Part shown: piece after piece, positions 8,890 to 61,570 of the stretch
Layout: every line of letters begins with the position of its first letter
Numbering within the stretch: position 1 is the stretch's first letter
NCBI GenBank assembly: GCA_024137785.1
Contig: JAHRHZ010000031.1
Span: forward strand, 17,441,653-17,505,652
Reading direction: 5' to 3'
DNA length: 64,000 nucleotides
Origin: Ginglymostoma cirratum
Lineage: Eukaryota
Translations under genes and position numbers: made by a program
Notes under the pieces: generated by a model
What the model saw: only the letters and a program-made list of their open reading frames with translations
Told to the model about the DNA's origin: nothing
Database searches by the model: none

Positions 8890-8985
8890 AAAGCAAAAAC
8901 TGGAGATACTCAGCAGGTCTGGCAGCACCTGCAGAGAAAGAAATGGTTAATTTTTCAAGTTCAATATGACTCTTCTTCAGTACTG
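8890..8985 (-). mobile_element. Penelope pLTR-derived solo unit with degenerate hammerhead
   Basis: Minus strand CTGAAGAAGAGTCATATTGAACTTGAAAAATTAACC...GCTGCCAGACCTGCTGAG; same family as 17197, 43411 and 60288. Confidence 0.65.
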
Positions 8986-8989
8986 TTTA

Positions 8990-9600
8990 CATGATCTTCA
9001 TATGGTTCCAATCATAATGCTTCATTTTATTAATGCATTAAACGCCATTGGCTAGTTGACTGTCCACTTCAACAACTTATCTTTGTCCTTTTGCACTTCT
9101 ACACTATTTTCATAGCTCAATGCTTCTAATTTTTGTATCACCTGCCAATTCCACAACTTTATATGTATTTACATACCAGGAGGAGTAAGGATCACATTAT
9201 CAACACTTGGGAACTCCATTATAAACCATCCTCCGTTCCAAAACACATCCATCAACTACTACACTGTTTCCTATCATTGAGTAATTTTATATTCAGCTGC
9301 TACTGTCAAATAAAAGTTCCATAAGCATTAGAAGCCTGTGGTGTGATATCTATCTTTTGGATATTCAAATAACAAATAACAGTCTTACTCTCATTCTTCT
9401 CAATTACCTCTTGAAAAAACTCCAGCAAGTTTGTTAATCGTAATCGGTTCTAACAAAGCCATGCTGGCTGCCCTTAATTAACCTGGATAGGCTCAAGTGA
9501 CTAATAACTTTATGTAGAATTATTGTTTCTAGAAATATCGCTATCACCAAAGTTAAACTAACCAGCCTGTAGTTGCTGCATCTTTTTCTGAAATTCACAG
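8990..9600 (-). mobile_element. Old CR1 LINE fragment
   Basis: Decayed RT region (QHGF...LTNLLEFF on the minus strand near 9420-9470). Confidence 0.55.
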
Positions 9601-10229
9601 TTCTTCCACCCAGTACAACCAGCCTGTGTACACTTGCTACATCTCATTTGGTCTGGTGTCTTAACAACATTTTAGCACAAACAACCAAAGCATCTCATCA
9701 ATTCTGAATCCTTCAAGTTTTTGAATTACCTCCTCTTTCACCATAACCCAAGAAATATCAATACTCAGTCTCTCTACCAAGTAAGTTTAGTTAATGTCTC
9801 AGCTATTCTTCCACCTACCTGCATAAACCCTTTTCTAGGCTTTAAATCAGTCCCACTCTTGTTACAACCTTTTAACTTATACCTATGGGAGATTTGAGGA
9901 TTTCCTTTTATACGCTCTTTGGTTCTCTTAGTTGATTTTACACTTCTCCTCTGATGCTAATCAAGAACCAGGTAGCAACCCAACAAGCGGAGAAATTTCT
10001 CCTTGATGCCAATCTTAGTGAAATGCAGCCTTGATGTCAACAGCAGTTACTCTCACCTCACCTCTGGAATTACTGCTCTTTATTCATGTTTGAACCAAGG
10101 CTGAAATGAAGAAAACACCTGAGTGGCCCTGGCAGAATCCAAACTATGTGGCAGTAAGTAGATTATTGCAAAGCAAATGCAGTATTATAGCACTGTCATT
10201 TGATTCTTACCATCACTTTGCTTTACAAG

Positions 10230-10535
10230 CAACATCACATTAACAGGGACTAAAAGCTGACAAATTTCCAGGACTTGATGTCTATACCCTGGGTTTCTAT
10301 AAGTAATAACTGCTGAGACAGGAGACATATTGGGTATAATTTGCCAAAATTTTCTAGATTCTTGAGCAGTCCCAACAGTTTGAAAGTTAGCAAATGCAAC
10401 TGCTCTTCAAGAAGGGTGAGGGGAAAAGAGGGAGAAAAAGGAACAACAAACCCATTAGCCTGACATTAATCATTGGGAAAGAACTGGAATCTCTTATCAT
10501 GGAATGCTTAACAATACATGCAGAAAGTCATAGTG
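10230..10535 (+). mobile_element. CR1 LINE fragment
   Basis: LFKKG...PISLTLIIGKELESLI (ORF 10394..10618). Confidence 0.75.
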
Positions 10536-10549
10536 AACAGAGGTTTTCT

Positions 10550-11080
10550 TTTTCATTCATGGGATGTGGTGAGCTGTCTTTAACCATTGCAGTCCATGTG
10601 CCATGGGTAGATCTATAATGCCATTAGGGAGGAAGGGAATTCCAGGATTTTGACCCAGCGACACTGAAGGTACATCGATATATTTCCAATTTGGGGTGGT
10701 GAGTAGCTTGGAGGGGAACTTGTAGACGGTGGTGTGCCTTTGACCTTCTAGATCGCAGTGTTTGGAAGATGCTGTCTAAAGATCTTTGGTGAATTTCTGC
10801 AGCGCATCTTGTAGATGGTGCACATTGTTGCTGAGCATTGATGCTAGAGGGAGTGGAGGATGTCAAGGTTTTTGCAAGTTGTTGGAGCTGCAGTCATCAA
10901 GGGGAGTATTCCATCATACTTCTGACCTGTGCCTTGTAGATGGTGGGCAAACTTTGGGGAGTCAGGAAATGTGTTCTCACTGTCGTATTCCTAGCCTTTG
11001 ACCTACTCTTGTAGCCACTGTATTTATATGATTAGTCCAATTCAGTTTCTGGTCAACGGTAACTCAAAAGATGTTGATAG
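10550..11080 (-). mobile_element. Second non-LTR LINE family (CR1/L2 superclade), 3' end
   Basis: Minus strand reads HSL*H...CTIYKMRCRNSPK and SKSWNSLP; tail ccacatcccatgaatgaaa; related copies at ~16180-16620 and ~48225-48800. Confidence 0.65.
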
Positions 11081-11099
11081 TGTGTCAGAAATGTCACAT

Positions 11100-11820
11100 T
11101 TCACAGGATTTATTGGAGGTTTTTGAGGATATATCAGTAGGGTAGTTTTAAAAAGAATTGCTAGTGGATGTAGTATGGTTGAATTTCCACAACGTATCTG
11201 ATAAGGTACCAGGATAAAATGCAAGATGAGGACTCATGGATCTGGGGTAGTACATTAGCATGCTTTGAGCTTTGCTCAACACACAGGAAGCGAGACAATA
11301 GGATAAACAAAGCTTTCAATTGGGCAAGCTGTAACTGGTGGGGCTCTGCAAGGATCCGTGCTCGAGCCACAGCAAGGAGATTGTAAACTGAGGATTAGAG
11401 AGGGTGCAATAATACATAAATAAGTGGGTGACAAAATTAGTAGTGGGGAAATTGCTGGAGTTACTTTCAAAGATCTAATAACAGAACACCTGGAAAGCAT
11501 TAATGGGGTTAGACATGTCGGTGTGGATTTTAGAAAGGGAAATCATGCTCAACTAATCTTTTGGAAGTTTTTGAGGAGGTAACTTGTAGGACAGATAATC
11601 AAAAACCAATGGATGCAGAATATTTGGGTTTTGGTTAAGCTTTTGATAATAAAGTACATGGGATTGGGGAAATATACTGGCAAGGACAGAGAATTGATTC
11701 ACAGACCAGAAACAGAGGTGGAATAAATAAGTGTTTTTCTAGGTGGCATGTAACAGATCAGTGCTTGGGCCTCACCTATATATAAATGGTATAGATGGTT
11801 GTATAAATGGTTTGAGTGAG
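11100..11820 (+). mobile_element. CR1 LINE fragments
   Basis: GKSCSTNLLEVFEEV-like and QGSVL-like RT segments. Confidence 0.7.
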
Positions 11821-11824
11821 CATA

Positions 11825-12015
11825 ATCATAGAATCACAGAATCCCTGCAGTATGGAAGGAGGCTATTTGGCCCCACACTGACCCAGCACGCAACCTCACA
11901 TCTACTCTGGTTAATCCTCCTAGCTGACATATCCTTGAATACTACGAGGAATTTCAGCAGGGGCAATCCACCTAATCTGCATATCTTTGGACTGTGGGTG
12001 GAAACCGGAGCACCT
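11825..12015 (-). mobile_element. HE1-type (V-SINE) partial copy
   Basis: atcatagaatcacagaatccctgcagt tail and caatccacctaatctgcatatctttggactgtgg core, matching the 35088 copy. Confidence 0.75.
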
Positions 12016-12084
12016 AGACATGGATAATTGTGAAGTTATACAGTTCCATATGTAAACAGAAAGGCAGAGTAGTATTTAACAGTG

Positions 12085-13460
12085 TATGACAAATCCCCAG
12101 GTGTGGGTGAGCTGTATCCCAGACTGTCGTGGGAGATACGAGAGGAAATTATAAGGGTCCTGACCAAAATTTTTAAAATCATTTCTGGCCACAAAAGAGG
12201 TGCCAGAGAACAGTTAATGTAGTTACACTTTACAAGAAGGCCGATAAGAGATAGACCAGCGAGTCTAACATCGATGTTGGGGAAGTTAATGGAGTAAATA
12301 GTGAAGGACAAAATTATTCTTCATTTAGTGAGGAAAGGTTCGATTAGGAATAGCCCAATGGCTTTATCAGAGAGGCATCATGCCTATCAAATCTGGTGGA
12401 ATTTTGAGGTGGTGACCCAGTGTTGGATGAGGTTAGGGCAGTTGATGTAGTTTACACGGGTTACAGCAAGGATTTTGACAAGGTCCCATATGGGAAATTG
12501 ATAAAGAAGTAAAATCTCGTCAGATCTAGTGTAACCTGGCAAATTGGATCCAAAATTACCTTCGTGACGGGAAACAGGGCAGTAGTAGAAGACTGTTTGT
12601 GACACTGGAGCCTGGTGTGCGGTCGCATACACAGTGATCAGTGGTTGCTCCGTTATTGTTTGTGATATTCATAAATGATGTACGTAAGAATGGTGGGAAT
12701 GATAAGTAAGCTTGTGGATGACACAAAAATTGGCTGGGTGGTTGACAGTGAGGAAAGTGATGTACAGGAAGGTATAAATGGATTGGTTAGATAGGCTGAT
12801 CAGTGGCAAACAGAATTTAACCCTGATAAATGAGGTAACGTACTGTGGAAGAGAAAACAAGTCCAGGGAATGCTCAACGAATGACAGGACACTAGAAAGC
12901 TCAAAAAGAACAAAAGGATCTTGGGGTGCTTGTCTACAAATTCCTGATAGGGTTGTTAAGGCTGCTTATGGGATGCCTGCCTTTGTCAGTCATGGCACTG
13001 ATTATCAGAGCAGGGGGTCATATTGGTCATCGCACTATAGGAAGGATGTGATTGCACTGGAGACGGATTCACAACGATATTGACTGGGATGGAGCATTTC
13101 AGCTACGGAGAGTGGCTGGCTAAGCTGAGGTTGTTTTCTTTGCAACAAAGACGTTTGAAGTCAGACTTGGTAGAGGTGCACAGGGGGCAAATTTTTAAGG
13201 TGACAGGAGAAAGTTTTAAAAAGGACATGAGGAGCAACATTTTAACGCCGAGAGTAGTTCGCTTGTGAAATAAATTGTGAAAGGAAGTGGTGAATGCAGG
13301 CACAGTAACAATGTTTAAAAGACATTTGGATAAGTATACGAGGAGGAAAGGTTTGGAGGGATATGGGCCAAACACACATAAGTGGGACTGGTTTAGTTTG
13401 GGATCACTGTTACTGTGGATTAGTTGGAGCAATGGGTCTGTTTTCATATGATGTATGACT
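12085..13460 (+). mobile_element. CR1 LINE, internally deleted, with 3' end
   Basis: KSPG..LYPRL, FDKVP, DDTKIG, RLKSDLVEV motifs and tail tgtatgactct. Confidence 0.85.
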
Positions 13461-14382
13461 CTACAATTGGTAAATGGCTATTTTTCAGATTGGAGATCGG
13501 AAGAAAATCATGTTCCCAACATATGAATGAATATGTATAAATAACTTGTTTGGAATGGAGGGTAAACCTTAAAATCTGCCAAAGACAGTACACCTGGAGG
13601 TATGGCAAAGTGTTATGAGATCAATCAACTGCAACAGGATCTACAGACAGGCTAACAAAATTAGTACTCAAGTGGAAGATGGAATTTTAGAGGATCAACT
13701 TAAATTATGACACTTGAGTGATTTTTACATACTCTACTGTTTCCACTACTTTTGAAGTGACAGAAGCTAAGAGAATTGCAACAAAACATACCTCAAAGTT
13801 TTAAAAACACAATTCTCAATTTTTAAAACTCCTGATGGGCAAGTTTCAAACAACCTGGCCGTCTGTTTTATTTCAAGAACATAAAGCAAAAATAACTTTT
13901 AAGAATTTTCCAGGTGGTTATCCTGCTATATTATATACCATAGAATATTATTCTTCTCCTAATCAATTCTTTCCCAATTCGACTGGGGGATCTTTTGGCT
14001 CTTGCTACCTTATGCAGATTATTAAGGAATATAGTCAAGGTGTCCTGTAACAATGGCAGCTGTCTATACTTGATGCAGCGTATGAAGTGCACTCATTCAG
14101 GAATGCAATAGTTGAATGCTTTATATTATCCACATATATTGTATAAGCTAAGCACAAACTTTTACCCTTCTCTTCTCTCCCAACACAACTGATTGATCCA
14201 ATGGATCAACCAGGACAGGGAACATGACCAGAAAGGTCATATGTCATTTTCTTCATATAAAGAGTGTTTTCTATAAATTCTAATGACCCATTTTTTCAAG
14301 ACTCCTCTAGAAGTGATGAATGAGTTGGATTTGTCTTTATGGGGTTGTTGATTTGCTCGCCGAGCTGGCTTGTCTTTCTTCA

Positions 14383-14415
14383 GACGTTTCGTCATGTGCT
14401 AGGTGACATCATCAG
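14383..14415 (-). ncRNA. Minimal hammerhead ribozyme motif (inverted copy, sense to scml2 pre-mRNA)
   Basis: CUGAUGA-U-GUCA(CCUAGCACA)UGAC-GAAAC-GUC. Confidence 0.7.
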
Positions 14416-14658
14416 TGGAACCTTCGATGAATCAATATTATTCTCTGCACTTGGAATTTATACTGTCCAGTCCTTTATGGTGAGTACTGTGAATTCCTAG
14501 AGGCATGGTTCTCCACCCATACTTCAATCAACAAACATATAGAATTGGACCCCATATATAAAACCATACAGATCAAAACCGGAAATGATAGTACTCACCA
14601 CAACAGACTGGACAGTATAAATTCCAAGCGGTGTAGAATAACATCGCTTCTTCAGAGG

Positions 14659-14701
14659 TTCCACTGATGATGTCACCTAGCATGGTGACGAAACGTCTGA
14701 A
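14659..14701 (+). ncRNA. Minimal type I hammerhead ribozyme motif
   Basis: CA-CUGAUGA-U-GUCACC(UAGCAU)GGUGAC-GAAAC-GUC-UGAA: intact core, 6-bp stem II, palindromic ACGU in place of stem III. Confidence 0.8.
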
Positions 14702-15534
14702 CAAAAACAAGTCAGCTCGGCGAGCAAGTCAACAACCTCACCCACAACCCAAGCCACAGATCTTTGCCAAAACTTTAAACAACTACAGGCATAACACACT
14801 AAAAACTGCCAGACAACAGGAAACCTTCACCATTTGTTTTTATGCCACACCTGTGAGAGAAGCAGTTTTGCCAGAATTAAGAGATGATGTAATGTAATTT
14901 AAATGAGTGCTTTGCATGTTTTCTTCTTGAACAGAAGCAGGATCCTGGAGTTTACATTTAAAGATGTGGCTCAGACCTTGCTTCCCATTACAGATGCCTG
15001 AATATCAGTTGCTGTAGGGGGCTAACAAAATCACTTGTACTTTTACATATACGCACAATGTGCATTTAGGTAATTCTGACAATTTACAGCTTCAGGTCAG
15101 CTATTTAAATTTAGAGTTCATCTTCTTCTCTACAGTGAATTTTCTCCCTCCCTAATATTTGTATTTGCAGAACGTGTGGACCTTTTACAACTCTAACAGC
15201 AGTTTAGAAAACTACTTTTTGGGAAATTCAACTTGTGCTGGGGACACAATTCCACTACCTTGCATCATTTTGTATATTTAATTTGTTTTATACTGTAGAA
15301 AAACCTGGAATATTTTACTATATAATTTAGGAATAAATTACAACACATAATACATAAATTACATAATATGCAGTTACAGAAATTGCAAAATGGACACTTG
15401 CTATTTGATCCAAACAGATCCAATTTACCTTTCCTTTGTGCACTTATTTGATTCCTACTTCACTAAGATTGTCCTTATACAAAAAGCTGCAAGACTTTTA
15501 TTAAAAAGGCATGCTACAGGAGCAAAAGACTTAC

Positions 15535-16620: not shown

Positions 16621-17196
16621 ATCATAAGAAAGAAAAGCAGGAATAGACCATATGGTTCCTTAAGCATGATCAGCATTCGATACTACTTTCTGGTCCACTC
16701 CCTACATCGTCAATTCCAACAGATTATCGAGAGAAAAGGGCTGCCCACTTGTGAAGAAAGCTGCCGAAACGCTTTCCTGTTTCTTTTCCAAGAGCAAAAC
16801 AACTGAGTCAAACTCCAACACCCAAGTACTGGTGCAAAGTGAGGGATTTCCAGATATCACAAACCTGTCCCTGCCACTTGTCGCTGATTGCTACAGAGCT
16901 GGTGTTGCGTGTGGGGGAAGGTCATCTTTTAGGTAGATGCCTTGTGCAAGGCATCTTTTAACCTGAGAAAGCTGTTGCACAACAGTAGACATGTTGTCCT
17001 TGACAGAAGCTGGATTGAGTTCCTGTGGCAAGGAAACCTTGGGTAAGAATCTCCCCACTGCTGCAGCCTTCATTTACCATTGCAGTCGTTGATATCACAT
17101 GAACACTTACAACTGGATCGCCATTGAGGACCTGTTTCAGATTGCGCTTTGTCTGCTTCCTTTCTTGTCGCCAATAATGGGTGGCACTACCAGGTG

Positions 17197-17330
17197 TTCT
17201 GACGAAGGGTCACTGGAACCGAATGTTAACTCTGCTTTTTTCCCCCACAGATGTTGCCAGACCTGCTGAGTTTTTCCAACAATTTCTGTTTGTATTTCTG
17301 ATTTCCAGCACCTGCAGTTCTTGTGTTTTA
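17197..17330 (+). mobile_element. Penelope pLTR-derived solo unit with degenerate hammerhead
   Basis: ttCTGACGAagggtcactggaaccGAAtgtta...gccagacctgctgag...ttccagcacctgcagttc. Confidence 0.75.
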
Positions 17331-17502
17331 TTTGTTTATTCCAAACATAATATTAGTTTGTAAACAATTGCATTGTAAATTGCTATTTACTTATCAGATG
17401 AAAAACAAATCGGGGTTAATAATAGTTAATCATTGCTAGCCAGATGCAATGGGTTTCACAATGCCATTGGAAAGAGGACAGTGGAAGTCATTTGAGAGCA
17501 GT

Positions 17503-17707
17503 GATAACAAGGTGTAGAGCTGGATGAGCACAGCAGGCCAAGCAGCATCAGAGGAGCAGGAAAGCTGACGTTTCGGGTCTAGACCCTTCTTCAGAAAAAC
17601 TTCAGAAAATTTTTTCTGAACAAGGGTCTAGACCCGAAACGTCAGCTTTCCTGCTCCTCTGATGCTGCTTGGCCTGTTGTGTTCATCCAGCTCTACACCT
17701 CGTTATC
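17503..17707. mobile_element. Palindromic (fold-back) Penelope pLTR element with 15-bp TSD
   Basis: Two ~95-bp inverted arms nearly identical to the terminus of the Penelope at 52310; flanked by tcatttgagagcagt at 17488-17502 and 17708-17722. Confidence 0.9.
17567..17594 (-). ncRNA. Minimal hammerhead ribozyme motif
   Basis: CUGAAGA-A-GGGUC(UA)GACCC-GAAAC-GUC; the plus-strand mirror copy at 17616-17643 has a core mutation (CUGAACA). Confidence 0.72.
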
Positions 17708-18343
17708 TCATTTGAGAGCAGTTTACAGATTTCCCTACAAATCAATGAACATCACAGACAAACATCTGAATGGCTATCAGAAAATTAAAAGGCTTACATA
17801 TGACATGTTTTTGTGTAAACCTGTTCAACTGTTAACCAGATATTCAAACTTTGTTTTAAACATTATCAGCTTTTGTGGAGATCATGACAGACAGATTTTT
17901 CACTATTGTACTTGGAAAGAAGGTATAGTAATAGAGCAGAAAAGGTCAGTTTGGGCTCTGGGCACCGGGCACCAGAATGAACTTGATTTCCTATGACATA
18001 ATTTTCTACAGATGTCACTCCATTTCTCTTCTTAAAAGTAGGTACTATACATGAAGTACCTACGTTACTATACAAGCTATACATGAAAAGCAGTATCTTT
18101 TCCAGAAAATAAATGGGCAATACATATCAATAATTCTAGTTAGGTGCAGCTTGCACCCAAAAGACTTCTTCAAACACAAGCTGCAAACTACAGTAAGTCT
18201 TCAGTTTTATTGTCAATTCTTTTCAGAGCTTTGGGATGCTGAATCAATGCAATACTCATTACATCAAACGATCAATTAAGTATGTGTATACACATGCACA
18301 CACAAAAGAGGGGCATTTCAGATTCAACTTTCAGAGTCAAGAA

Positions 18344-20037: not shown

Positions 20038-20130
20038 GAGTCATCTAGACTCGAAATGTTAGCTAGCTCTCTCTCCATGGATGCTGTCTGACCTGCTGTG
20101 ATCTCCAGCATTTACTGTTTTCAGTACAGA
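20038..20130 (+). mobile_element. Penelope pLTR-derived fragment
   Basis: gagtcatctagactc-GAAATGTTA...gatgctgtctgacctgctgtg; begins at hammerhead stem II. Confidence 0.6.
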
Positions 20131-25488: not shown

Positions 25489-25619
25489 CTACAAGAGGAA
25501 AAAGATGATAAGTGGAAAGTGCTCGTTGGACAAAGTGCAAAACACTTCAACAAATAGTACAACAGAAAATAAATTAATGATATGTGAACCTTAAAAATAC
25601 CTAATATCCAATATATCAA

Positions 25620-33434: not shown

Positions 33435-33525
33435 CAAAACCAGAAATTGCTGGAAACACTCAGCCAATCTGGCAGAGTCTGCGGAGAGAAAGCGGAGTTT
33501 TCAGGTCCAGTGACCCTTGTTCAGA
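33435..33525 (-). mobile_element. Penelope pLTR-derived solo unit
   Basis: Minus strand tCTGAACAagggtcactggacctGAAA...gccagattggctgagtgtttccagcaatttctgg. Confidence 0.65.
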
Positions 33526-41762: not shown

Positions 41763-41962
41763 CAATACAGCGTGGAGCTGGACGAACACAGGTCAGGCAG
41801 CATCCGAGGAGCTGTAGAATCGACGCTTCGGGCCTAGACCCTTCATTCTAGGCCCGAAGTGTCAACTCTTCTGTTCCTCTGATGCTGCCTGACCTGCTGT
41901 GTTCCCCCAGCTCCATGCTGTATTGACTCTGATTCCAGCATCTGCCATTCTTGCTACCTGAC
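41763..41962. mobile_element. Palindromic Penelope pLTR element with 10-bp TSD
   Basis: Inverted arms of ~75 bp plus a 3' extension; tggctgagat at 41753-41762 and 41963-41972. Confidence 0.82.
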
Positions 41963-42539: not shown

Positions 42540-42774
42540 GTGGTTGAGGTTGGTTGGCTCACCGAGCTGGCTTGTTTGTGTGTCTCTTCTAATTTGGTCC
42601 GTTTAATGACGACAAAGGTGTCGTCTACGTAGCGTATCCATAGTTTAGGTTGGATTTGCGGAAGGGCGGTCCTTTCCAGTCTTTGCATCACTGCTTCTGC
42701 GACCCATGGGATCGCCTATCTCATGATTCATAGCAGAAGCAGTGATGCAAAGACTGGAAAGGACCGCCCTTCCG
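42540..42774. mobile_element. Penelope (Poseidon-like) RT fragment with internal inversion
   Basis: Minus: AEAVMQRLERTALPQIQPKLWIRYVDDTFVVIK; plus: PMGSPIS*FIAEAVMQRLERTALP; pLTR piece ggctcaccgagctggcttg similar to 14350-14373. Confidence 0.82.
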
Positions 42775-43174
42775 NNNNNNNNNNNNNNNNNNNNNNNNNN
42801 NNNNNNNNNNNNNNNNNNNNNNNNNNNNNNNNNNNNNNNNNNNNNNNNNNNNNNNNNNNNNNNNNNNNNNNNNNNNNNNNNNNNNNNNNNNNNNNNNNNN
42901 NNNNNNNNNNNNNNNNNNNNNNNNNNNNNNNNNNNNNNNNNNNNNNNNNNNNNNNNNNNNNNNNNNNNNNNNNNNNNNNNNNNNNNNNNNNNNNNNNNNN
43001 NNNNNNNNNNNNNNNNNNNNNNNNNNNNNNNNNNNNNNNNNNNNNNNNNNNNNNNNNNNNNNNNNNNNNNNNNNNNNNNNNNNNNNNNNNNNNNNNNNNN
43101 NNNNNNNNNNNNNNNNNNNNNNNNNNNNNNNNNNNNNNNNNNNNNNNNNNNNNNNNNNNNNNNNNNNNNNNNNN
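42775..43174. other. Assembly gap (400 N)
   Basis: Run of N. Confidence 1.
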
Positions 43175-43307
43175 CCCTTCTTCAGAAATGCATTTTTGCA
43201 GAAAAGCAGCCTTCCTGCTCCTCTGATGCTGCTTGGCCTGCTGTGTTCATCCGTCTCTACACCTTGTTATCTCAGATTCTCCAGCATCTGCACTTCCTAC
43301 TATCTCT
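43175..43307 (+). mobile_element. Penelope pLTR (17503/52310 family), partly in the gap
   Basis: cccttcttcagaaa turn followed by cttcctgctcctctgatgctgcttggcctgctgtgttcatcc...gttatctcagattctccagcatctgca. Confidence 0.8.
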
Positions 43308-43410: not shown

Positions 43411-43516
43411 ATCAGAAGTTCTGAGAAAGGGTCACTCGACCCAAAACATTAACTCTGATCTCTCTCCACAGATGCTGCCAGACCTGCTGAGCTTTTCCAG
43501 CAATTTCCATTTTTGT
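43411..43516 (+). mobile_element. Penelope pLTR-derived solo unit with 10-bp TSD
   Basis: ctgcctccaa at 43401-43410 and 43517-43526; ttCTGAGAAagggtcactcgacccAAAAcatta degenerate hammerhead. Confidence 0.82.
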
Positions 43517-49619: not shown

Positions 49620-51620
49620 ACTTGGCTTGCTGAGTCAGCTCCACGATTCAGAGAGATCTGGCTGACCTGATAGCCCTCAACCCCACCTTTCTGCCTTATC
49701 CCCACAATACTTGATTCCCTTACTAAATTAACAAACTAGCTTAACCTTCAATCTACTTAACAATCCAGTATTTAAAACCCTCTGATAAAAAAAAATCCTC
49801 AGATTCTGTAGCCTCTAAAAGTTGAAATTTTCTTATCCATCTTACATGGTGACCCCTTAACCTGAGAATATGTCCTCTCGTCCTACACTCTTGCACAAAT
49901 GGGGGAAAAAAAAACTGTCTACCTACTATCGAGCCCCTCAAGATTCTTCAGTTTCAATAAATTTGCCTCAAATTCTTCTAAACTCCCATGTACACAGGCT
50001 CAACATAGTCAACCTCTCATGAGAGAACCCTTCCATGCCAGGTTCAACCTGGTAAAGTCTGCCTGGACTTCCACCAGACATCGTGTTTCCTTTGTTAAGG
50101 GGGCCAAAACGATTCACACTATTCTTGGGATGATGAAACTCATGCCTTGATTTGTTGAGCAAGGATTCCTTATTTTCATACTCCATTCACTTTGAAATAA
50201 AGGCCATCATCTGTATGCCTTCCTTATTACCTGCTAAACGTGGATACTAGCTTTTTACAATTCAGGCACAGGGAACCCAAATTCCTTTGCACTGCAGATT
50301 TCTACAGTTGCTCCCCATATAAATAATATTAGATAAATAATATTCAAAACAAAGAGTGCGGCTAAGAAACAGCAGGTTTGGCAGCATCCGTTGAGAGAAG
50401 AACAGAATTAACATTGAGTCTAGTGACCCTTTGTTAAAACTGGACTCGAAATGTTAATTCCATTTTTCTCTCAACAGAGGCCGAGTACCAGACTTAGTAT
50501 GTTTCTCCCCGACTCTTTCATAATTGCAGCATCTGCAGTTCTCTGTATTTATATATTTTTAAATTTAATTAATATTAGACCCCTCAATTCTTCCCGCCAA
50601 GGTTCATAATCTCATATTTATCCACAATACATTCTATCTGCCATGTTATTGTCGACTTACTTAACCTGTCCACATCATTTGGTAGACTCTCATTCTCGCA
50701 GCTTGCCGCCCCATTTATTTTTGTGTAATCCACAAAACCTGGTCAAAGTACATCCACTTCCCTCATCCAAATCATTAACATATCACGTAAATTATTGTAG
50801 TCCCAAATATCTGTGGCACGCTACTAGTTGCATGTTGCCCCATCCTGAAAATACCTCAGCAATTTTTAAAAATGATTTCATCAATCCTCCATCCGTGCTA
50901 ACATACTAGCCCTGACACCCTGGCTTTATCTGATTAAGGGCCTTACACGTAGTACCTCAGTGAATGCCTTCTGGAAATCCAAATATATTACATCTGCTAC
51001 TGCCCTTTTTAATCGATCTGCTTGTTACCACCGCAAAGAAATTTAGTATATTTGTCAGGCATGATTTCCCCTTCATGAAACCATGCTGACTCTGCTTCAT
51101 TTTATTATGCATTTCTAAATGCTCTGGTACTGTATCCTTTATAATAGACTCTAACATTTTTCCAATCATAGATATGCTAACTGGCTTCTAATTTTTTTTT
51201 GACATCTTCTACTTTAAATAATGTATCACATTGGTAGTTTTCCAATTCTTTGGGACATTTCCAGAATCTGTGGACTATTGGTATTCTACTATCAGGGTGT
51301 CACCACGTCTTTTGCAACTTCCTATAAAATCCTAGGTTGCAACTAATCAGGACCAGGGGATTTGTCAGCCTTTAGCTCACTAGTTTCTCTACTAACGAGT
51401 ACTACTTCTCTTATGACAGTTATTGTATTTGTTTCCTATCTCCCTTTTGCCCCTTGATTACTTAGTATTTTTAAAATGTTATTAGTGTCTTCTACCATTA
51501 AGAGTCTTGCAAAGTATTTATGTACTTCCTCCACTGCTTCCTCATTCCTCTTTATTATTCCCCCAACCTTGCTCTTGAAGAAGCCTAAGTCCACTCTGGC
51601 ACCTTATTTTCCTTCTTATT
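49620..51620 (-). mobile_element. CR1 LINE, decayed
   Basis: GKMLESIIKD..KQSQHGFMKGKSCLTN (ORF 50957..51169); RTRGH.LRLRG (ORF 49753..49941). Confidence 0.88.
50345..50550. mobile_element. Older palindromic pLTR element inserted in a CR1
   Basis: ttgagagaagaacagaattaacattgagtctagt / actggactcgaaatgttaattccatttttctctcaa inverted arms; cagcatctgcagttc tail. Confidence 0.6.
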
Positions 51621-52309
51621 TTAGGAAGCTCTGAATTTTTAAAAATATAAATAGCTTCCCTTTTCAGTTCGCCCAATACTTCCCCCGGAAAGAAAGGGGA
51701 GGCAGAAATTTCTCAAAAATAGCCCAGTTAGCTTGATGTTTGCAGTTGTGAATGCGTCGGAATCTAACATAAAGGAAGTTATAACTGGGCATTTGGAAAG
51801 TGGTTAGGAAGAGTCATCATGGTTTTGTGAAAAGGAAGTAGTGTTTAACCAAATTTTTGGAATTCTGAGGTGGTAACGTGTTCACGAATCAAGAGGAGCT
51901 CAGACATTGATGTACTGTACTTGGATTTTCACAAAGCATTTGGCGAAGTTTCAAAGAAAAGGTCACTGTGCAAAGTACAAGCTCACGGTAAGAGAGGTAA
52001 CACATTAGCATGGTATGTATGCTATATTGGCTGGCTGGAGTAAAACAGAGCTTGCAAAAATGAGTCATTTTCAGATTGGCAGGATGTAATGAATGGGGTT
52101 CCACAGAGACCTGTACTGGGACCTCAATCTTTCTACAGTTCATGTCAATGACCGAGATGTGGCAAACAAAGCTTTGGTGGCTAGATCTGCAGATGACAAA
52201 GACAGGCAGGAAATCATGCTGTGAAGGTAACATTCAGCCTGCTTAGACAGGTTAAGCAAATGGTCAAAAATATGGCAGATCAAGTCCAATGTGGGAAATA
52301 GTGGTAACA

Positions 52310-54290
52310 GATAACAAGGTGTAGAGCTGGATGAACACAGCAGGCCAAGCAGCAGCAGAGGAGCAGGAAAGCTGACATTTCGGTCTGGACCCTTCTTCAG
52401 AAATGGGGTAGTGGAAGGGGATTCTGAAATAAAGAGAGATGGGGGAAGGGATGGAAGATGGATAAAGGAGCAGATAGGGGGACAGGAGATGGACAGGTCA
52501 AGGAGGTGGGGATGGAGCTAGTAAAGGTGAGTGTAGGTGGGGAGTTAGGGTACGGGTTGGTCAGTCCAGGGAAGACGGACAGGTCAAGGAGGTGAGGATG
52601 AGGCTGGTAGGTAGGAGACAGGGGTGGGGTTTGAGGTGGGAGGAGGGGATAGATGGGAGAAAGGACGGACAGGTTAGGGAGGCGGGCACGAGCTGGGCTA
52701 GTTTTGGGATGCTGTCGGAGGCAGGGAGATTTTGGAGCTTGTGAAGTCCACATTGATACCATTAGGCTGCAGGGTTCCCAAGCGAAATATGAGGTGCTGT
52801 TCCTGCAACCTTCGGGTGGCATCATTGTGGCACTGGAGGCGGCCCAGGATGGACATTTCGTCCAAGGAGTGGGAGGAGGAGTTGAAGTGGTTCGCGACTG
52901 GGAGGTGCAGTAGTTTGTTGCAAACTGAGCACAGGTGTTCCGCAAAGCGGTCTCCAAGCCTCCGCTTGATTTCCCCAATGTACAGGAGGCCACATCGGGA
53001 ACAGCGAATACAGTATACCACATTAGCAGACGTGCAGGTGAACATGTGTTTGATGTGGGAGGTCTTCTTGGGGCCTGGAATGAGGTGGGGGGGGGGTGCG
53101 CGCGAGAGAGAGAGAGAGAGAGAGAAGGTGTAGGGGCAGGTGTAGCACTTCGTGCGGTTGCAGGGAAAAGTGCCAGGGGTGGTGGGGCTGGAGGGGAGTG
53201 TGGAGCGGACAAGGGACTCACGGAGAGAGTGGTCCCTCTGCAAGGCAGATAAAGGGTGGGGAGGGAAAAATGTCTTTGGTAGTGGGGTTGGATTGCAGGT
53301 GGCAGAAGTGCCAGAGGATGATGTGTTGCATCCGGAGGTTGGTGGGGTGGTACGTGAGGACGAGGGGATTCTGTTTTTGTTATTGCGAGGAGCAGGCGTG
53401 AGGGATGAATTGCAGGAAATGAGAGAGACGCGGTCGAGGGCATTTTCGGCCACTGTGGAAGGGAAGTTGCAGACCTTGAAAAATGAGGACATCTGGGATG
53501 TCCGGGAGTGTAATGCCTCATCTCAGGAGCAGAAACGGCGGAGGCAAAGGAATTGGGAACAGGGGATGGCATTTTTGCAGGAAGGTGGGAGGGAAGAGGT
53601 GTATTCTAGGTAGCTGTGGGAGTTGGTAGGCTTGAAATGGATATCGATTTCCAGGTGGTTGCCAGAGATGGAAACAGAGAGGGGTATCGGAGATGGTCCA
53701 GGTGAACTAATGGTTGGGGTGGAAGGTGTTAGTGAAGTCTGTGAACTGTTCGAGCTCCTCGTGGGAGCACAAGACGGTGCCGATACAGTCATCGATGTAA
53801 CGGAGGAAGAGGTGGGGGATAGGGCCAGTGTAGCTTTGGAAGAGGGATTGTTCCACGTATCCTACAAAGAGGCAGGCATAGCTTGGGCTCATGCGGGGAC
53901 CCACGGCCACCCCCTTTGTCTGTAGGAAGTGGGAGGCATTGAAGGAGAAGTCGTTAAGGGCGAGGACGAGTTCAGCTATGCGGACAAGGGTGTCAGTGGA
54001 GGGGTCTGGTCAGGACTACGGGACAGGAAGCAGCGGAGGGCCTTTAGGCCATCTGCAGGGGAATGCAGGTATATAGGGACTGGATGTCCATGGTGAAGAT
54101 GAGGTGTTGGGGACCAAGGAATCGGAAGTTTTGGAGGAGGTGGAGGGCATGGGTGGTGTCACGGATGTAGGTGGGGAGTTCCTGGACCGGGTGGGAGAAA
54201 ATGGAGTCGAGATAAGTGGATATAGGTTCGGTGGGGCAGGAGCAGGTGGAGGCAGCAGGTCAACCGGAGCTGTCAGTTTGTCAGTCAGGC
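52310..54290 (-). mobile_element. Penelope-like retroelement (Neptune-like; RT + Cys-rich linker + GIY-YIG), 5'-truncated and frameshifted
   Basis: MAVGPRMSPSYACLF...FLRYIDDC (RT); FPCNRTKCYTC linker; VVYCIRCSRCGLLYIGE..RFAEH..HFN..H..LGTLQPNGIN (GIY-YIG); pLTR at 52310-52402. Confidence 0.93.
52374..52400 (-). ncRNA. Minimal hammerhead ribozyme motif in the Penelope pLTR
   Basis: CUGAAGA-AG-GGUC(CA)GACC-GAAAU-GUC. Confidence 0.62.
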
Positions 54291-55049
54291 CACTGGGAAA
54301 AAGTGTTGTTGTTCACGCACATTGAAAGAATAAAAAAGGCTGAGCATTATTAAATGCAACACAACTGCAAAATTTTCCAAATGCAGAGGAATCCGGATGT
54401 TCTAATGCATGAAACACACAGTTAGTATGCAGGTACAGTAAATGATTAAGGTGGCTAATGGGATGTTATCCTTCATGAAGGGAGGAAGTGGACAGAAAAG
54501 GAAAGAGTTTTTGCATCAGCTGTATAGGACACCAACGAGATCACAGGCTGAATCTATGTGTAATTTTGGCCTCCTTATTTAAGGATGGAGAAGGTTCTGA
54601 GGCAGTTTGTTAGGTTGATACCCGGAATGAGCGAGTTATCTGAGGACTAAGTTGAATAGGCTGGCTTATTTACACTGAAGCTTAGAAGAGTGACTTGATT
54701 GAAGTGTAAAAGATCCTGATGATCTTGACAAGATGGATGTGGAAAGGTTGTTTCACCCTATAGAGAGAGTGCAGAGCTCACGAAATCTAATTTAAAATCA
54801 GGGGTTGCCTTATTTTTGACACACGGAGAATTACTCTGCGGAGGTTGCAAATTTGGAATTGTGCCTCAGAAGGCAGTGGACAGGGTAATTGATTTTTTAA
54901 GGTGAAGACAGATTGCTTTTGTTCGACTAGGGAATCAAAGGTTATGGGGTTGATGGGAACAGGGAATTCAGAACACAAATAGCTCAGCCATGATCTTTAG
55001 GAATGGCAAAGATGGCCTAAAAGGCCAAATGAAATACTTTTCCTCTGAA

Positions 55050-55530
55050 ATCACATGTTCCCTGTCCCTTGCATCTGACCTCAACCTCCCAAGCCCTCCT
55101 GCAGCATCCTTCAATCTCTCCAAAACCCTCTTGCAGCCTCATTTTTCAGTCTTTCTCACCAAATTTCTCCTGCAGCCTCCTTTTCTCATTCCATATTCCT
55201 CACACCCATCTTCCCACTATTCTTACAGCTTTCTTCTCCCCTTCCAACCATGTATGAAGCCACTTTCCTGACTCTATCCTTCTTGCAGCCTCGTTCTCCT
55301 CAAACCCACTTCTTGGAGTCTTCTGTTCCCCTCCTACCATTTTGACAGCCCACTTTATCCCTACAGTACTTCTTTCAGCTTCCTTCTCTTCCCCACCCGC
55401 TCGGCCAAAAACTGTGCAACCTCATCTTCGCACCCCACCCCAAGTGCTATTCACAGCCTTCTTCTCCAATCTCAACTCCTTTTGCAGCCCTTTTTTGGCA
55501 GCCTCTTCACTAGTCCCCAGCTGCTTTGGT
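55050..55530 (+). repeat. Degenerate pyrimidine-rich tandem array (recurrent YTGCAGCCTC motif)
   Basis: About 10 variants of cttgcagcctc separated by C/T-rich spacers. Confidence 0.55.
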
Positions 55531-56366
55531 AGCCCCCTTAAGACAGCTGTTATTGCTGAATATTTTTTGTTCTTATCATCAGTAAAATAATCAAATCAAC
55601 CAAGATTTCTTGTTACATTGCTTAAGCTTGCAGACATGCACTTGGTAAATATGATGGATACTCTGGCCTTTCAATCTATGGACGGTTTTTGTGAAACTTG
55701 TAGTTAACACACAAAATTCAAACTTCATGGCTAAAACTATACAAAGTACACAGAACAACAACCATTGACTAACTTTATAATATTAAAGATGAGTGAAAAA
55801 GCAAATTTCAGTAGCTCTGTACTTGTGAGTTATACCATACAGACCTTTCTCAAAACAGATGTACAATACCAACTCCTTTTCCTTAAACATAGTTCTTTAT
55901 TTACACTGAAGCATAACTGACCACACAGACACAAACCAGTACGATGGTTGGGCAGAAATATAAAAAGGTACGTAACTATACACTGACTATAACGTGTGTT
56001 CCAACAAACACTGTTGGAACAGTCTATAGAAAACAAAGCAGAAATGTACAATTGTGTCAGCATATATCCACAACTTCAATGCAAGATATTATACAATATT
56101 CGTTGTACACAAACTGAACAACTGACCTGTAGAGGTCAACTATATGGCCTTTAACAACATCTACAATGTCAGTTTATAGACATTTAATAAATTATTATAA
56201 CACAGAAAAGCTGATATAATATTTGCATGATATAGCATAAGAGTTATAGGATCCTGCATTGTTCTAGAATAGAGCTCTTCTGAAATTTTAGTCTAAAATA
56301 TTCCACAATTTAGAACACTTTTCTGGCAAACTTAGTACAAAATGATAATCCATTTCAAACTCTTAC

Positions 56367-56610
56367 CTCTATTTCCAGGTGGCTGAAGGCCATCTCCCGT
56401 CATGCCACACCATCCGACTGGAAAGATATCACGAGAATCATATCTGCACCAATAATCAAATGCGCCTCTCCAGCCATCAAATGTTACGAAAATGTCATCG
56501 GCTTTCACTTCACTGATGGTTGCTGGACAAATCAGGTGAGGGTTTTTTCGATCCACTGCTTCCAGTTTCATCCCAACTTTGAAATGATTTTGCTGTGGGC
56601 TTGGGGGTTC
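56367..56610 (-). CDS. scml2: SCML2-like exon, second MBT repeat (EPPSPQQNHFKVGMKLEAVDRKNPHLICPATISEV...FDYWCRYDSRDIFPVGWC...LQPPGNR)
   Basis: 244 nt, phase 0 to 1; ORF 56332..56571 shows the MBT signature; acceptor tttgag|GAA, donor G|gtaag. Confidence 0.96.
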
Positions 56611-58084
56611 CTCAAACAGGAAAGAAATTAGTTTTTTTTTCTCTCCTGCCCAAGTGCAAGCATGAACTTAACATAGAACAAATGGATTGTAACTCCTTCG
56701 AGTAAAAAAAAAGTAGCATTTACGGACTGCGACTATAGTTCAGCACTTTCGGATGTGTAATGAACTTCTATAAAAGTTGAATGCGTGCAGGTATATTATC
56801 AATGCACAAATGATGCGTTGTTTTTAAAAAACAGAAATCCAAAACATGAGGATACATCACAGTTTGGTGAGTTTAAGAGAATTTTAATTTACACAGCAAA
56901 AAATTACAAGCCTATTAGAGTTGAAGTCTAACAAAAATAAACGTTATTTTCCAAGGCTTCCCAACAGAGTGAAGCTTTGTTTCTAGAAAGAAAATATGTT
57001 ACAGTCATTACTTCATTTCATGGTCACAGCTAGCAACAGTGCAGCGAGTCTCAAAATTATCTCCATGAAATCCAACATAGCTGAAAAAGTACTCAACTCC
57101 ATACCCAAAATGCAAGATGAAGAGAAAGAGAGAAAACTGGCTTTAAAGACAACAGAGTAGTCTAGAATCCATGTAAAATTTAAATCAAGACGAAGCATTT
57201 AGCTCTGCAATATAGCAAAAGATAGCAGTGCTCATTAGCCAGGACTAAATGTGGAGTTAAAAAGGAAAATAGCCATTGAAAGAAGCAAAGATTACAGTAA
57301 AATAACAAACTGACACTAGCAGCTGATAGAATAAACTTCACTTTTCCAATGGTGTGACTTCATCCACACCCAAGCAACATCTTGGTCCCGTTACTGATTC
57401 TAAGTTAATCTTTAAAGTATAAATTTAGGACTGTGTTTACTAATTCTCTCCTTCTCCGCACTCCCTCCTCTGCTGTGCCCCATTTCAAAACGGCATGCAT
57501 GCACAGTGCTTTACTAACTTACGGCATCATATGTATATTAATTGATGACAGTGTCTGCCATTCATGCATAGTTGCCTGCAGTGGTATCAGAAAACACTAC
57601 CTAATTTTATTCAATACATGCAAGGATACAAGCAGAGTTTATCCCTCATTTTACGCACAGTAAGTTTTTGCACATTTCCTAATAGCTGATGTTCATTTTT
57701 TTGCACAGGACAAATGTACACAGTGCATCATATCCCAAAGCTCATCAGCACCAATGCTCGAGTTGTGAAGTGCTATGTAGGAAAGTTTCACAGCATAATT
57801 TTGTTTTCCTCAAGGGCTTCTCTTGATATTCCCCAAGGGCTTTTTTTTTATTGTTGGGGACCTGTTCTTCTGTCTCAGTAATTTCATTAGGTGTTGCAAA
57901 CTTTTCTGTATGTTGATATCTGGTGGGCTTGAACTCAAAATAGAACTAGAAGAATTAATCAAATTCCCAGTCATCGTTACTGCTCCATTAAATTTAAAGC
58001 AATACATACAACCACAACATTAATTTTCTCAATAAGACAAAATTTACAATGGGCAACAGACAATGGGCTTACGGCAGCAACAGA

Positions 58085-59230
58085 GTCAGAGTCATACAGC
58101 ACAGAAACAGACCCCTTGGTGTGCCAACCAGATGTGTCCATCTGAACTAATCTTATTTGCTGGCATTTGGCCCATATCCCTCTCAATCCTTCCTAGTCCT
58201 ATACACATGGAGATGCCTTTTAAAATGTTCCAATTATACCAACCTCCACCACTTCCTCTGGCATTTCATTTCATATACACACCAGCCTCTGCGCGGAAAA
58301 AGTCACCTTTCAGGTCCCTTTTAAATCTTTCTCTCCTGAGCTTAAACCTATGCCTTTAGTTTTAAACTCCAATATCCTGGGGAAAAGCCATTTGACTATT
58401 CACCCTATCCATGACTTTATAAACCGCTTAGGTCACCCCTTAGCCTCCAACACTCCAGGGAAAATAGCCCCAGCCTATTCAGCCTCTCCCTATAATTCAA
58501 ACTCTGCAGTCTCGGAAGTATCCTCGTAAATCTTTTCTGCACCCTCTCAAGTTTAACAACATCCTTGCTATAGATGTGCAGCCAGACTTGTGCAGTATTC
58601 GAAACGTGGCCTCAACTATGACCTGTACAGCCACAACATGACATCCCAACTCCTACACTCGATTTTCTGACCAATAAAGGCAAGCATTCCAAACCCCTTC
58701 TTCACCACCTTGTATACCTGTGACTCCATTTTCAACGAACTTTACACCTGCACCCCTTGGTTTCTTTGTTTGGTAACTCTCCCCAGGGCCCTACCATAAA
58801 CTGGAGAAGTGCTGCCTTGGTTTGTCTTACCAAAATGCAACATTTCACATTAATCTAAGTTAAACTCCATCTGCCACTCCTTGGCCCATCTGATCAAGGT
58901 TCCATTGCACTCTTCGATAATCTCCTTCAATGTCAACACCACCACCTATTTTGGTGTCATCTGCAAATGTTCTAACTCTGCCTCCGACATTCACATCCAA
59001 GTAATTTACATAAATGACAAAGCAATGGACCCAGCACCAATCCTTGAGGCACACCGCTGATCACAGGGTTCCAGTCTGAAAAGCAACCCTCTACCACCAC
59101 CCTGTTTACCACCTTCAAGCTAATTTTGTATCCAATTGGCTGGCTTCCTCTGGGTCCCTTACTTAGCAGTGTACCATGCAGAACCTTGTTGAATGTCTAA
59201 ATGGACTTCAGCAAAGCAACATCTGCTGCT
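58085..59230 (-). mobile_element. CR1 LINE 3' portion
   Basis: VIYVNYLD..RTFADDTKIGG (ORF 58860..59054); agagtcagagtcatacagc tail. Confidence 0.9.
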
Positions 59231-59289
59231 CTGCCTTCATCTCTTCATAAAAAGAAATGTTTCTTTGAAAAAAAACCTGAGACACTTAG

Positions 59290-61570
59290 AATCATACAGC
59301 ACAGAAACTGATTCAGTTCAATTAGTCTATACCGAACACTATCCCAAACTAAACTAGACCCACCTGCCTGCCCCTGGCCCATATCCCTCCAGATCTTTTT
59401 TATTCATGTATTTATCCAAATCTCTTTTAAACCTTGTAATTGTACCTGCATCTACTACTTCCTCAGGAAGCTGATTCCACATGCGAACCACCCTCTGTGT
59501 GAAACATCTGCCCCTCATGTCTTTTAAATCTTTCTCCTCTCACCCTAAAAATGTGTCCCCTAGCCAAGGGAAAAGAAAATTATCGATTCTGTCCATACCC
59601 CTCATTATTTTATAAATTTCTATCCCGTCACCTCTCAACCTCCAATGCTCTACTGGAGAACAGTCCCAGGCTATCCAGCCTGTCCTTCTAACTCAAACCT
59701 TCCATACCCAGCCACACCCTGGTAAATCTCTTCTGAACCTTCTCCAGCTTGATAATATCCTTCATATAACTGGTCGACCAGAACTGGACATAGTATTCCA
59801 GAAGAGGCCTCATCAATGTCCTATATGACCACAACATAAGTTCCCAATTCCTGTACTCAAGGGACTGAGCAATGAAGGCAAGCATGCCAAATGCCTTTTT
59901 AATCACCCTGTCTATATGTGACGCAAACTTCAAAGAATTATGAACCTGCACCTCCAGATCCCTCTGTTCTACAACACGACCCCAGGCCCTATTCTTGTTC
60001 GTTGTACCAAAATGCAATACCTCACAGTTATCCAAATTCAACTCCATCTGCCATTTTTCAGCCCATTGACCCATTTGATCAAGGTTCCTTTGTAATCTTA
60101 GAAAACCTTCTTCACTGTCTACAATGCCACTGATTTTGGTGTCATCCACACACCCACTAACATATCTTCTATATTCCCATTCAAATCATTTATATAAATA
60201 TCAAACAAGAGACAACCCAGAATCAATCCCTGTGGAGCACCGCTGGTCACAGGCCTCCAGAACGAAAAACAACCCTCCACTACTACTAAATTCTGAGGAA
60301 GGGTCACCGGACCCAAAATGTTAACTCTGTTTTCTCCTTCACAGATGCTGCCAGACCTGCTGAGCTTTTCCAGCAACTTTGTTTTTGCTCCACTATTACT
60401 CTGTCTCCTTCCATTAAGCCAATTATGTAATCAATTGGCAAGCTCACCCTGAATCCCATGAGATCTAAGTTTACTAATTGGTCTACCACGCAGAACCTTG
60501 TCAAAGGCTTTACTTAAGTCCAAGTAAACATTAATTGTTTTGTTTTCATCAATCTTTTCGGTTACATAATTAAAAACTCAATCAAGTTTGAGAGACACGA
60601 TGCTCCTTGCACAAAACCATGCGAACTATCCCTAATCAATTTTTGCCTCACTAAATGTTCATAAATCCTATCTTTTATAAATATCTCCAACAATTTACCC
60701 AGAACTGAAGTCAGGCTCACAAGTCGATAGTTCCCTAGTTTCTCCTTACAACCTTTCTTAAGCAAAGGTACAACATTAGCCAGCCTCCAGTCACCAGGCA
60801 CCTCACCCGTAGTTATAAGTGATGCAAATATTTCTGCAAGGGATCTCGTAACTTCTTCCCTTACTTCCCACAATGTTCTGGGATACATCTGATCAGGTCC
60901 CAGAGATTTATCTACCTTAATATTCTCAAAGACCTCCCAAGCTTCCTCTTCTGTAATGAGAACTGTTTTTAAAAATCGAAGTTTATTTCTCTGCATTCTC
61001 TAGACTCCATTTCTTCCTTTACAGTAAAAGTTGACAAAATATTTGTTTAGTATCTCTCCCATCTCCTGGGGTTCAACACAAAGACAACCTCCTTGATCTT
61101 TAAGCAGCTCTACCCTCTCGCTCTCAACGTATTTGAAGAATCTCTTCGGATTGTCCTTGACCTTATCTGCCAATACTCTCTCATATGCCCTCTTTGCCTT
61201 CCTGATTTCTTTCTTAAGAATGCCTCTACACTCTTTATATTGATTCAGAGATTCAATTGAACCAAGCAGTCTGTATCTAAAATAAGATCCTCTTTTATTC
61301 TTGACCAGAACCTCAATATCTTTATTCATCCACTGTTCCTTAATCCTACCAGCCCTAACCTTCATTCTAACAGAAACATAGACCCTCTGAAGTCTCATCG
61401 TCACACTTTTGAACACCTCCCACTTGTCAGATGTCCTTTTACCTGCAAACAGTCTACGCCAATCAACCTTTAAAAGTTTTGTCTCATACCATTAAAATTT
61501 GCCTTAAGTCAATTAAAAAACTCTAACTCTTACGGAAGGCTTATCCTTTTCCATAAGAATCAAATTATGA
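59290..61570 (-). mobile_element. CR1 LINE ORF2, decayed
   Basis: ORFs 59688..60149, 60562..60996 and 61000..61416 are CR1 ORF2 segments (KDNPKRFFKYV, GNYRLVSLTSVLGKLLE, DDTKISG). Confidence 0.93.
60288..60387 (+). mobile_element. Penelope pLTR-derived solo unit with 13-bp TSD, nested in a CR1
   Basis: ctccactactact 60275-60287 / ctccactattact 60388-60400; ttCTGAGGAagggtcaccggacccAAAAtgtta. Confidence 0.85.

Follow-up and report, generated by a model that had tools for sequence, protein, structure and literature searches.

Short hammerhead-bearing Penelope-like insertions in Ginglymostoma cirratum share a fixed 5' edge that may mark the start of their RNA template

Short copies of Penelope-like elements (PLEs), many with a recognizable hammerhead ribozyme core, lie scattered through a 64,000-nt stretch of the Ginglymostoma cirratum genome (4.36 Gb), which we refer to as the window. 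Several of them begin within a few bases of that core, and the question raised by this locus is what fixes such a boundary. An initial annotation listed ten short elements, all of which are present at the positions given, and proposed that the ribozyme fold is a fixed point at which the reverse transcriptase (RT) stops or switches template. The observation is largely confirmed and the mechanism has changed: from sequence, the edge is very probably the 5' end of an RNA. The elements had been ascribed to a single family derived from the long copy at 52310. This attribution did not hold, as there are at least five related families, namely A (17503, 43175 and the 52310 element), B (17197, 43411, 60288 and probably 33435), C (20038), D (41763) and E (8890, perhaps 50345), and B, C and D have long copies with 3' untranslated regions (UTRs) of their own.

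Positions are numbered here from the C of CUGA (position 0) on the element's sense strand, with minus values 5' of the core; an arm is a single stretch whose 3' end lies in the tail. In the window, 5' ends do lie near the core, as had been noted: they fall at -3 (17196, 17597 and 17613), -4 (43417 and 43189), -2 (60291) and -1 (33525), while the element at 20038 begins at stem II. The wider distribution was taken from a blind sample of 1,464 kb, picked regardless of content and including the window, of which 621 kb are N and 843 kb were analysed. Arms were mapped onto natural long copies as reference sequences, and matches to a query beginning AAATT were left out of the 5' end counts because the query's own start fixes theirs. 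Family A yielded 112 arms, 14 of which were dropped for N at the junction, leaving 98; family B yielded 62 at 80% identity or more. The ends are not spread uniformly, and the pile-up holds outside the window: 29 of the 98 A arms and 20 of the 62 B arms end at -5..-2, a per-base hazard of 0.15 and 0.21 compared with 0.004 and 0.007 elsewhere (ratios of 37x and 30x). A second family A set, of 70 arms at loci derived from searches, has 29 at the edge, and by eye about 8 of 20 family D ends fall within -6..0. The flanks upstream of the peak arms are unique, with one short shared pair among the 29 A arms and none among the 20 B arms, and many edge ends are abutted or nearly abutted by target-site duplications (TSDs) of 8-15 bp; the edge is thus no artefact of alignment. 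The resulting stubs, repeats of 100-250 bases, are numerous: peak arms have a density of about 58 per Mb in the sample, or ~250,000 if scaled to the genome.

Several simple causes of this edge can be set aside. Cleavage in cis at the GUC does not make the boundary, as the initial annotation had itself argued, since few arms end at +25..+28 (2/98 in A, 4/62 in B). A model in which copies start at the cleavage site (+28/+30) accounts for a minor class at most, and the four B ends at +28 are confounded by a GTTAAC palindrome. AT-rich microhomology was rejected because no ends occur at -38..-24; within the equally AT-rich octamer described below there are none among the 26 arms at risk. A splice acceptor at -4 was likewise discarded, as family A has no AG there and the stubs share no upstream exon.

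The two-armed insertions are the most informative about the template. The 3' ends of the arms are bimodal, at +92..94 and +125..127 in A and at +95..98 and +130..133 in B, which is the tail signature traced to two internal priming sites in the accessible text of PMC11167929. Both outer ends could be assigned in 20 of 40 A pairs and 10 of 14 B pairs, and of these, 19 and 10, respectively, combine site 1 with site 2, the sole site-1/site-1 A pair being the 17503 element of the window. A Poseidon-type family of the same genome, which served as a control, shows this combination in 18 of 19 pairs; it is represented in the window by a two-armed insertion at 14340..14779 (hammerheads at 14415, minus, and 14664, plus; arms -83..+76 and -173..+115) that was absent from the initial list. 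The hairpins had been read as fold-backs of one strand, an explanation ruled out by the unequal outer ends. As the arms start at different tail sites (29 of 30 A and B pairs), the hairpin shape instead represents two end-joined cDNAs, one per target strand. Assembly gaps frequently lie at the centre or on one arm of such insertions (window positions 42775-43174 and several other loci), so two-armed forms are probably undercounted.

If each arm met the same obstacle, its two cDNAs should stop or pass independently. The 57 listed family A junctions, in which two insertions appear twice, include 25 distinct insertions with both arms reaching +1. Nine of these have both arms stopping at -7..+1, 15 have both passing and only one is mixed, where 12.0 mixed pairs were expected; none of 100,000 shuffles gave a value as low. 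Without the 19 rows from loci chosen on coding parts, 0 of 18 rows are mixed, and the blind sample by itself gives 0 of 8 (P 0.006, one insertion listed twice). A shared stopping time is excluded as the cause of this rule because pairs in which both arms are long have very unequal lengths (e.g., -150 and -1146). The both-or-neither rule therefore makes stopping a property of the shared template molecule: some templates end at about -4 and others continue. A separate oddity is one locus (L183) at which the -12..+30 hammerhead segment is present upstream of the body as three to four inverted copies in tandem, as from repeated RT slippage or re-priming.

What lies upstream of the edge suggests how such a template end could arise. 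In long copies of family A the octamer TATTTATT starts at -35 in 63 of 78; in family B an octamer reading CATATAAA, CAAATAAA or CATAAAAA does so in 6 of 6; in family C CATAAATG lies exactly at -35 in 3 of 8 and is shifted by 2 in two more; and in family D the position of the TATTTATT octamer was counted in one long copy and is similar in three others. The long copies have an A at -4 preceded by C, and the octamer starts 31 nt before that A. The intervening spacers of families A, B and C are equal in length and different in sequence. RNA polymerase II (Pol II) promoters have the TATA box at -31..-24 from a start at a pyrimidine-A pair, within an initiator consensus, and the AT-rich box about 31 nt before a pyrimidine-A seen here agrees with this consensus and spacing. 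In the 52309 copy the octamer position is 52428..52435 (minus strand), with one substitution, and the candidate start is 52404. On its opposite strand, the family A box at -35..-28 gives AATAAA, which could be a poly(A) signal in antisense and is not found in B or C.

The bases at the junctions point the same way. Ends at -3 are preceded by T instead of the template's A in 22 of 26 cases (P 1e-5), and in 18 of 22 in the second set, as would be expected of an untemplated A on a run-off cDNA. Ends at -4 are preceded by G in 9 of 19 (P 0.03), which is a weak hint of a copied cap. Among five internally rejoined copies, three switch from -4/-5 into a body fragment, one of them across an A-tract, a pattern suggestive of jumping between templates where an RNA ends. 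In the chimeric copies L172, L163 and L165 the front of the element is joined directly to a -4/-5 stub, one via a short A-tract, and L165/L182 is a tandem of the front-plus-stub unit.

We estimate a probability of about 0.65, from these DNA patterns, that the edge is a transcription start at the A at -4 and that the stubs are run-off cDNAs. Retroviral minus-strand strong-stop DNA is a short cDNA that is primed internally near the RNA 5' end, ends there and can jump. By analogy, a TATA-like box within the 3' UTR ahead of the unit would place the Pol II start 31 nt downstream of it, and the uncut hammerhead would form the first part of the RNA. In copies that retain the front of the body, the tail continues directly into it, so the unit is hammerhead-tail-body-3' UTR, a circularly permuted repeat. 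One set of tail sites therefore follows the upstream repeat's hammerhead at about 95-135 nt, and another lies at the far 3' end. The insertions themselves show, in agreement with the in vitro Poseidon result, that copying is initiated internally from two tail sites, one per cut target strand, with about 34-37 nt between them. Priming near the RNA 5' end would give a run-off cDNA of 100 or 135 nt, which would often stop one base short and gain an untemplated A. It could then be joined to the target (a solo stub with a TSD) or to a partner cDNA (a hairpin-shaped insertion), or jump to another RNA. Long copies would arise where priming takes place on a template that runs on through the hammerhead, such as the far 3' tail, a tandem transcript or a ribozyme-made circle. 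The templates of stubs may be the fronts of full mRNAs or short transcripts from the 3' repeat of truncated copies; the stubs themselves, lacking the TATA box, would not propagate.

A number of points weigh against a transcription start. The proposed site is read from DNA motifs, and because the 4-bp stem I likewise begins with the A at -4, a promoter and a ribozyme cannot be told apart by position alone. The most frequent 5' end is -3 rather than -4, and the extra T of family A could also reflect slippage on a U run or microhomology with the target. Family C is blunt: 31 listed arms, obtained with a filter that missed about seven long copies, include 4 ends at -5..-2, 5 at -16..-13 and 13 at -1..+7. 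The small second cluster at -16..-13 (L300, L307, L309 and L310) is perhaps an alternative start in CTTCA repeats. Thirty copies were picked on the front of the body, 22 of them with an upstream repeat; 11 of these 22 reach -40 or beyond and only 2 end at -4/-3. A plain capped monomer therefore cannot be the sole template, and productive copies need a longer one, for which tandem read-through, a jump into the 3' repeat or a ribozyme-made circle (a form put forward in PMC4209133, accessible in part) is proposed. The Poseidon family, whose 3' ends are also two (+76 and +112/115), carries TATAAAT at -48, yet ends at -21..-15 are found in just 2 of its 54 arms, and run-off from a start set by a TATA box is therefore not a general rule; two apparent cases of a pile-up at TATA+30 in this family proved to be a diverged subfamily. 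The Penelope of D. virilis, moreover, uses a TATA-less internal promoter according to the accessible text of PMC2377424. Finally, families A to D share ancestry and are not independent samples.

A different origin for an RNA 5' end is processing, in which the AT-rich box serves as a signal of poly(A) type, a host nuclease cuts after the CA at -5/-4 and the RT runs off the downstream fragment. This would account equally well for the both-or-neither rule, and it places the end at -3, the observed mode; CATAAA and TATAAA, as found in B and C, are variant poly(A) hexamers. Families A and D, however, carry TATTTATT, which contains no poly(A) hexamer on the sense strand, the fixed 31-nt spacing suits a TATA box better, and uncapped downstream fragments are usually short-lived, so that we regard processing as unlikely. 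An end made on DNA rather than RNA appears improbable. Here the GIY-YIG endonuclease (EN) would trim new DNA just upstream of the hammerhead while resolving an intermediate, and both arms could be affected if the intermediate were double-stranded when cut. The EN of Anolis Poseidon prefers ATT in its own pseudo-long terminal repeat (pLTR), as far as the available part of PMC11167929 describes it, and family A has ATT at -4..-2. But B, C and D read AGTT, AGCT and AGTC at this place and B nevertheless has the same peak, the ATT motifs at -34..-28 draw no ends, and untemplated bases and jumps at the edge fit the end of a polymerase run better.

The initial proposal, that the folded ribozyme stalls the RT or forces it to switch at a fixed point, has some features in its favour. 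The edge falls where stem I begins at its 5' end, the hazard is mildly raised across the ribozyme (about 0.010-0.012 per nt at +6..+24 against 0.003-0.004 outside it), and the fold is conserved between families; a fold formed in trans or clamped by a protein might also act. A fold present in every template would stop the arms independently, however, and the pair result (1 mixed pair in 25) largely refutes this. A helix should moreover stop the RT at its 3' edge (+19 or +30) and not behind it. An RT that has come as far as -1 would have both stem II and stem I's 3' strand behind it, with no cis fold left ahead, and some of the ends within stem II are joins made through the palindrome of that stem. 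The Poseidon family, which has a minimal hammerhead with a longer stem II, provides a further argument: of its 54 arms, 50 pass -2 and not one has its end at -8..+17. Twenty-nine of these arms were picked by a core-spanning query, but the other 25 also have no ends at -8..+17. A hammerhead alone does not stop a PLE RT, though the Poseidon enzyme is a different one. Since pairs stop or pass together and Poseidon copies never end at this point, we consider a fold-imposed stop very improbable.

The same annotation held that the process yields non-autonomous ribozyme elements, and one could suppose that the stubs are an independent family, similar to short interspersed nuclear elements or retrozymes, that propagates from short master copies. 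Their very high copy number, fixed ends and TSDs are compatible with this, and dispersed retrozyme monomers have been described (bioRxiv 10.64898/2026.07.22.740005, in its accessible part). The tiny copies of family A do not form a lineage of their own, though. In a tree of 57 tiny and 70 long family A copies the two are intermixed, with 42 label changes compared with 40.3 +- 2.8 after shuffling (91 columns, hence limited power), and the diagnostic variants are common to both. Intact cores are found in 31 of the 57 tiny and 38 of the 70 long A copies, and rare changes in tiny copies are as common in the core (11/570, 1.9%) as in the tail (62/3353, 1.8%). Retrozyme-like tandem units, each with an intact hammerhead, were not found in the window or among the listed arms, which are solo or head-to-head, and no upstream flank is common to the stubs. 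An independent family is thus highly improbable; judging from the sequences, stubs are made in parallel from each A subfamily and then decay neutrally.

The identity of the parent element is best seen in the family A copy at 52309..54281 (minus strand), which is truncated at its 5' end and contains RT fragments, a CxxC linker, a GIY-YIG piece, a 3' UTR and a hammerhead (C of CUGA at 52400), followed by the tail up to priming site 1. The RT has an FLRYIDD motif, and the Pfam RVT_1 match to this broken fragment is below the cut-off (E 5e-4). The EN match is also below the Pfam cut-off (GIY-YIG, E 0.024), with a VVY..Y.GE motif visible. The linker, CNRTKCYTC, lies between RT and EN in the frame at 52698-53522, and a PDB sequence search with the RT fragment gave no match. 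The hammerhead lies on the sense strand about 340 nt behind the EN match, and in families B and C a hammerhead repeat is likewise found downstream of a GIY-YIG match. By domain layout, the copy fits an EN+ PLE of Neptune or Nematis type as defined in the accessible text of PMC8557442. The partial tandem (pLTR), the inverted partner and the optional tail of such elements are all seen here.

That the short elements are Penelope terminal pieces with minimal hammerheads was borne out by the motif and by compensatory changes between families. The layout is CUGANGA, an extra base, stem II, GAAA, NUH and stem I. In 12 hand-picked natural copies with near-intact cores from four families, stems I and II are kept through compensatory changes; 92% of cells are paired and 4 of 9 pairs show two-sided change, values inflated by relatedness. 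The hammerhead call, a predicted minimal type I, is based on the motif and these changes rather than on an Rfam model, as the model search found no hammerhead in the window at E<=1 and returned chance microRNA hairpin matches only. Cores had been described as intact or decayed. Most are decayed, an unbroken CUGANGA plus GAAACGUC being found in just one listed arm (17594, minus).

This arm, at 17503..17597 (minus; -3 to +91), is the left arm of a two-armed family A insertion with a 15-bp TSD (17488-17502 and 17708-17722), and a 15-nt filler joins it to a right arm with a mutated core at 17613..17710 (plus; -3 to about +91/94). The second family A pair in the window consists of the inner end (-4) of a left arm at 43175..43189 (minus), whose outer part falls within the 42775-43174 gap, and a right arm at 43207..43306 (plus) that runs from +27 to +126, priming site 2. 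The left edge of that gap is abutted by an inverted repeat of 42 bp (42659-42774), perfect and with 32 nt between its halves, that by eye is unrelated to the PLE tail. Family B contributes solo stubs on the plus strand at 60288..60391 (a 3-nt filler, then -2 to +98, with a TSD of about 13 bp and a mutated core), 43411..43516 (a 6-nt filler, then -4 to +95, with a 10-bp TSD and a decayed core) and 17196..17332 (-3 to about +134, decayed core). An old stub at 33435..33525 (minus; -1 to +94, decayed core) is B-like and probably of this family. The 60288 stub sits between open frames at 59688-60185 and 61000-61491 (minus), which resemble CR1/L2-type fragments of long interspersed nuclear elements. 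The family C stub at 20038..20130 (plus) starts at stem II (about +5 to +7) and ends at +98. The family D two-armed insertion at 41763..41959 has arms of about +5..+95 (minus) and +11..+125 (plus) that join inside stem II, a TSD of about 10 bp and no remaining CUGA. Two old copies complete the set, a family E stub at 8890..8985 (minus; C of CUGA at 8980, decayed core, approximate 5' end) and a decayed two-armed insertion of E/B type, perhaps E, at 50345..50545.

Much of this architecture is already known, including pLTR hammerheads, inverted partners and tails. Like the EN+ PLEs of the Neptune clade in the accessible parts of PMC8557442 and PMC3846280, these elements combine RT, CxxC linker and C-terminal GIY-YIG with partial tandems, an inverted 5'-truncated partner, a 30-40 nt tail on one side only and solo pLTRs; rotifer Pen2a in the same accounts has a putative TATA plus initiator in its pLTR. 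Truncation is frequent there but is not described, in those parts, as piled on one base, and the head-to-head palindromes that PMC3846280 attributes to self-priming on an antisense template are here two cDNAs from sites 1 and 2. Internal priming at two tail sites and extension of both target strands agree with the in vitro behaviour of Anolis Poseidon PAc, for which uncut RNA is the main substrate (PMC11167929). Poseidon belongs to another clade, and a fixed 5' edge or run-off insertions are not described in the accessible text of that study; the Poseidon family of this genome similarly has two priming sites and no pile-up. The ribozymes resemble the minimal type I PLE hammerheads of PMC4209133 in their extra base before stem II, palindromic ACGU stem III and 4-bp stem I, and in occurring mostly as single motifs, ascribed there to truncated PLEs, or as opposite-strand pairs. 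The accessible part of that paper, which proposes a circular template, does not map 5' ends, and the 5' end of helix I, which adjoins a candidate start site here, adjoins the end of an intron in D. virilis. The stubs also recall animal non-LTR retrozymes (PMC7229834 and the bioRxiv preprint, each seen in excerpt) in being short, non-coding, related to pLTRs and mobilised by PLEs, with a type I hammerhead; retrozymes are tandem repeats with a hammerhead in each unit, whereas the stubs are not. The likeness to retroviral strong-stop DNA is an analogy only, since the stubs would be primed by cut target DNA and so become insertions. We found no paper on a fixed 5' edge at the hammerhead, on run-off insertions or on the both-or-neither rule, although supplements may show such ends, and the term 'strong-stop' did not occur in the PLE papers that we located. 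What is apparently unpublished is thus a base-exact mechanistic record in a known kind of element.

Lunse et al. reportedly described dimeric PLE hammerheads in 2017. A tentative and rather doubtful extension of the transcription-start reading is that two template forms exist, a TATA-driven capped RNA that begins on the hammerhead's first base and yields stubs, and a unit-length circle cut and closed by the two hammerheads of that RNA in dimeric form. A dimeric RT primed at both tail sites of the circle would pass one full unit and so rebuild the upstream TATA promoter, a ribozyme-based substitute for LTR regeneration that would be recorded in about a quarter million fossil insertions.

PLEs are the closest relatives of telomerase RT, and how they prime, terminate and regain a promoter is a standing question, in vitro reconstitution having been achieved for just one of them. 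Should the edge prove to be the start of the RNA, the start site, both priming sites and a rule by which one RNA primes on two strands would all be mapped by the genome. This natural record of PLE copying would also give base-exact predictions for cap analysis of gene expression and for in vitro tests. The large counts of short hammerhead repeats in such genomes would then be mostly dead by-products of this copying rather than ribozyme mini-elements.

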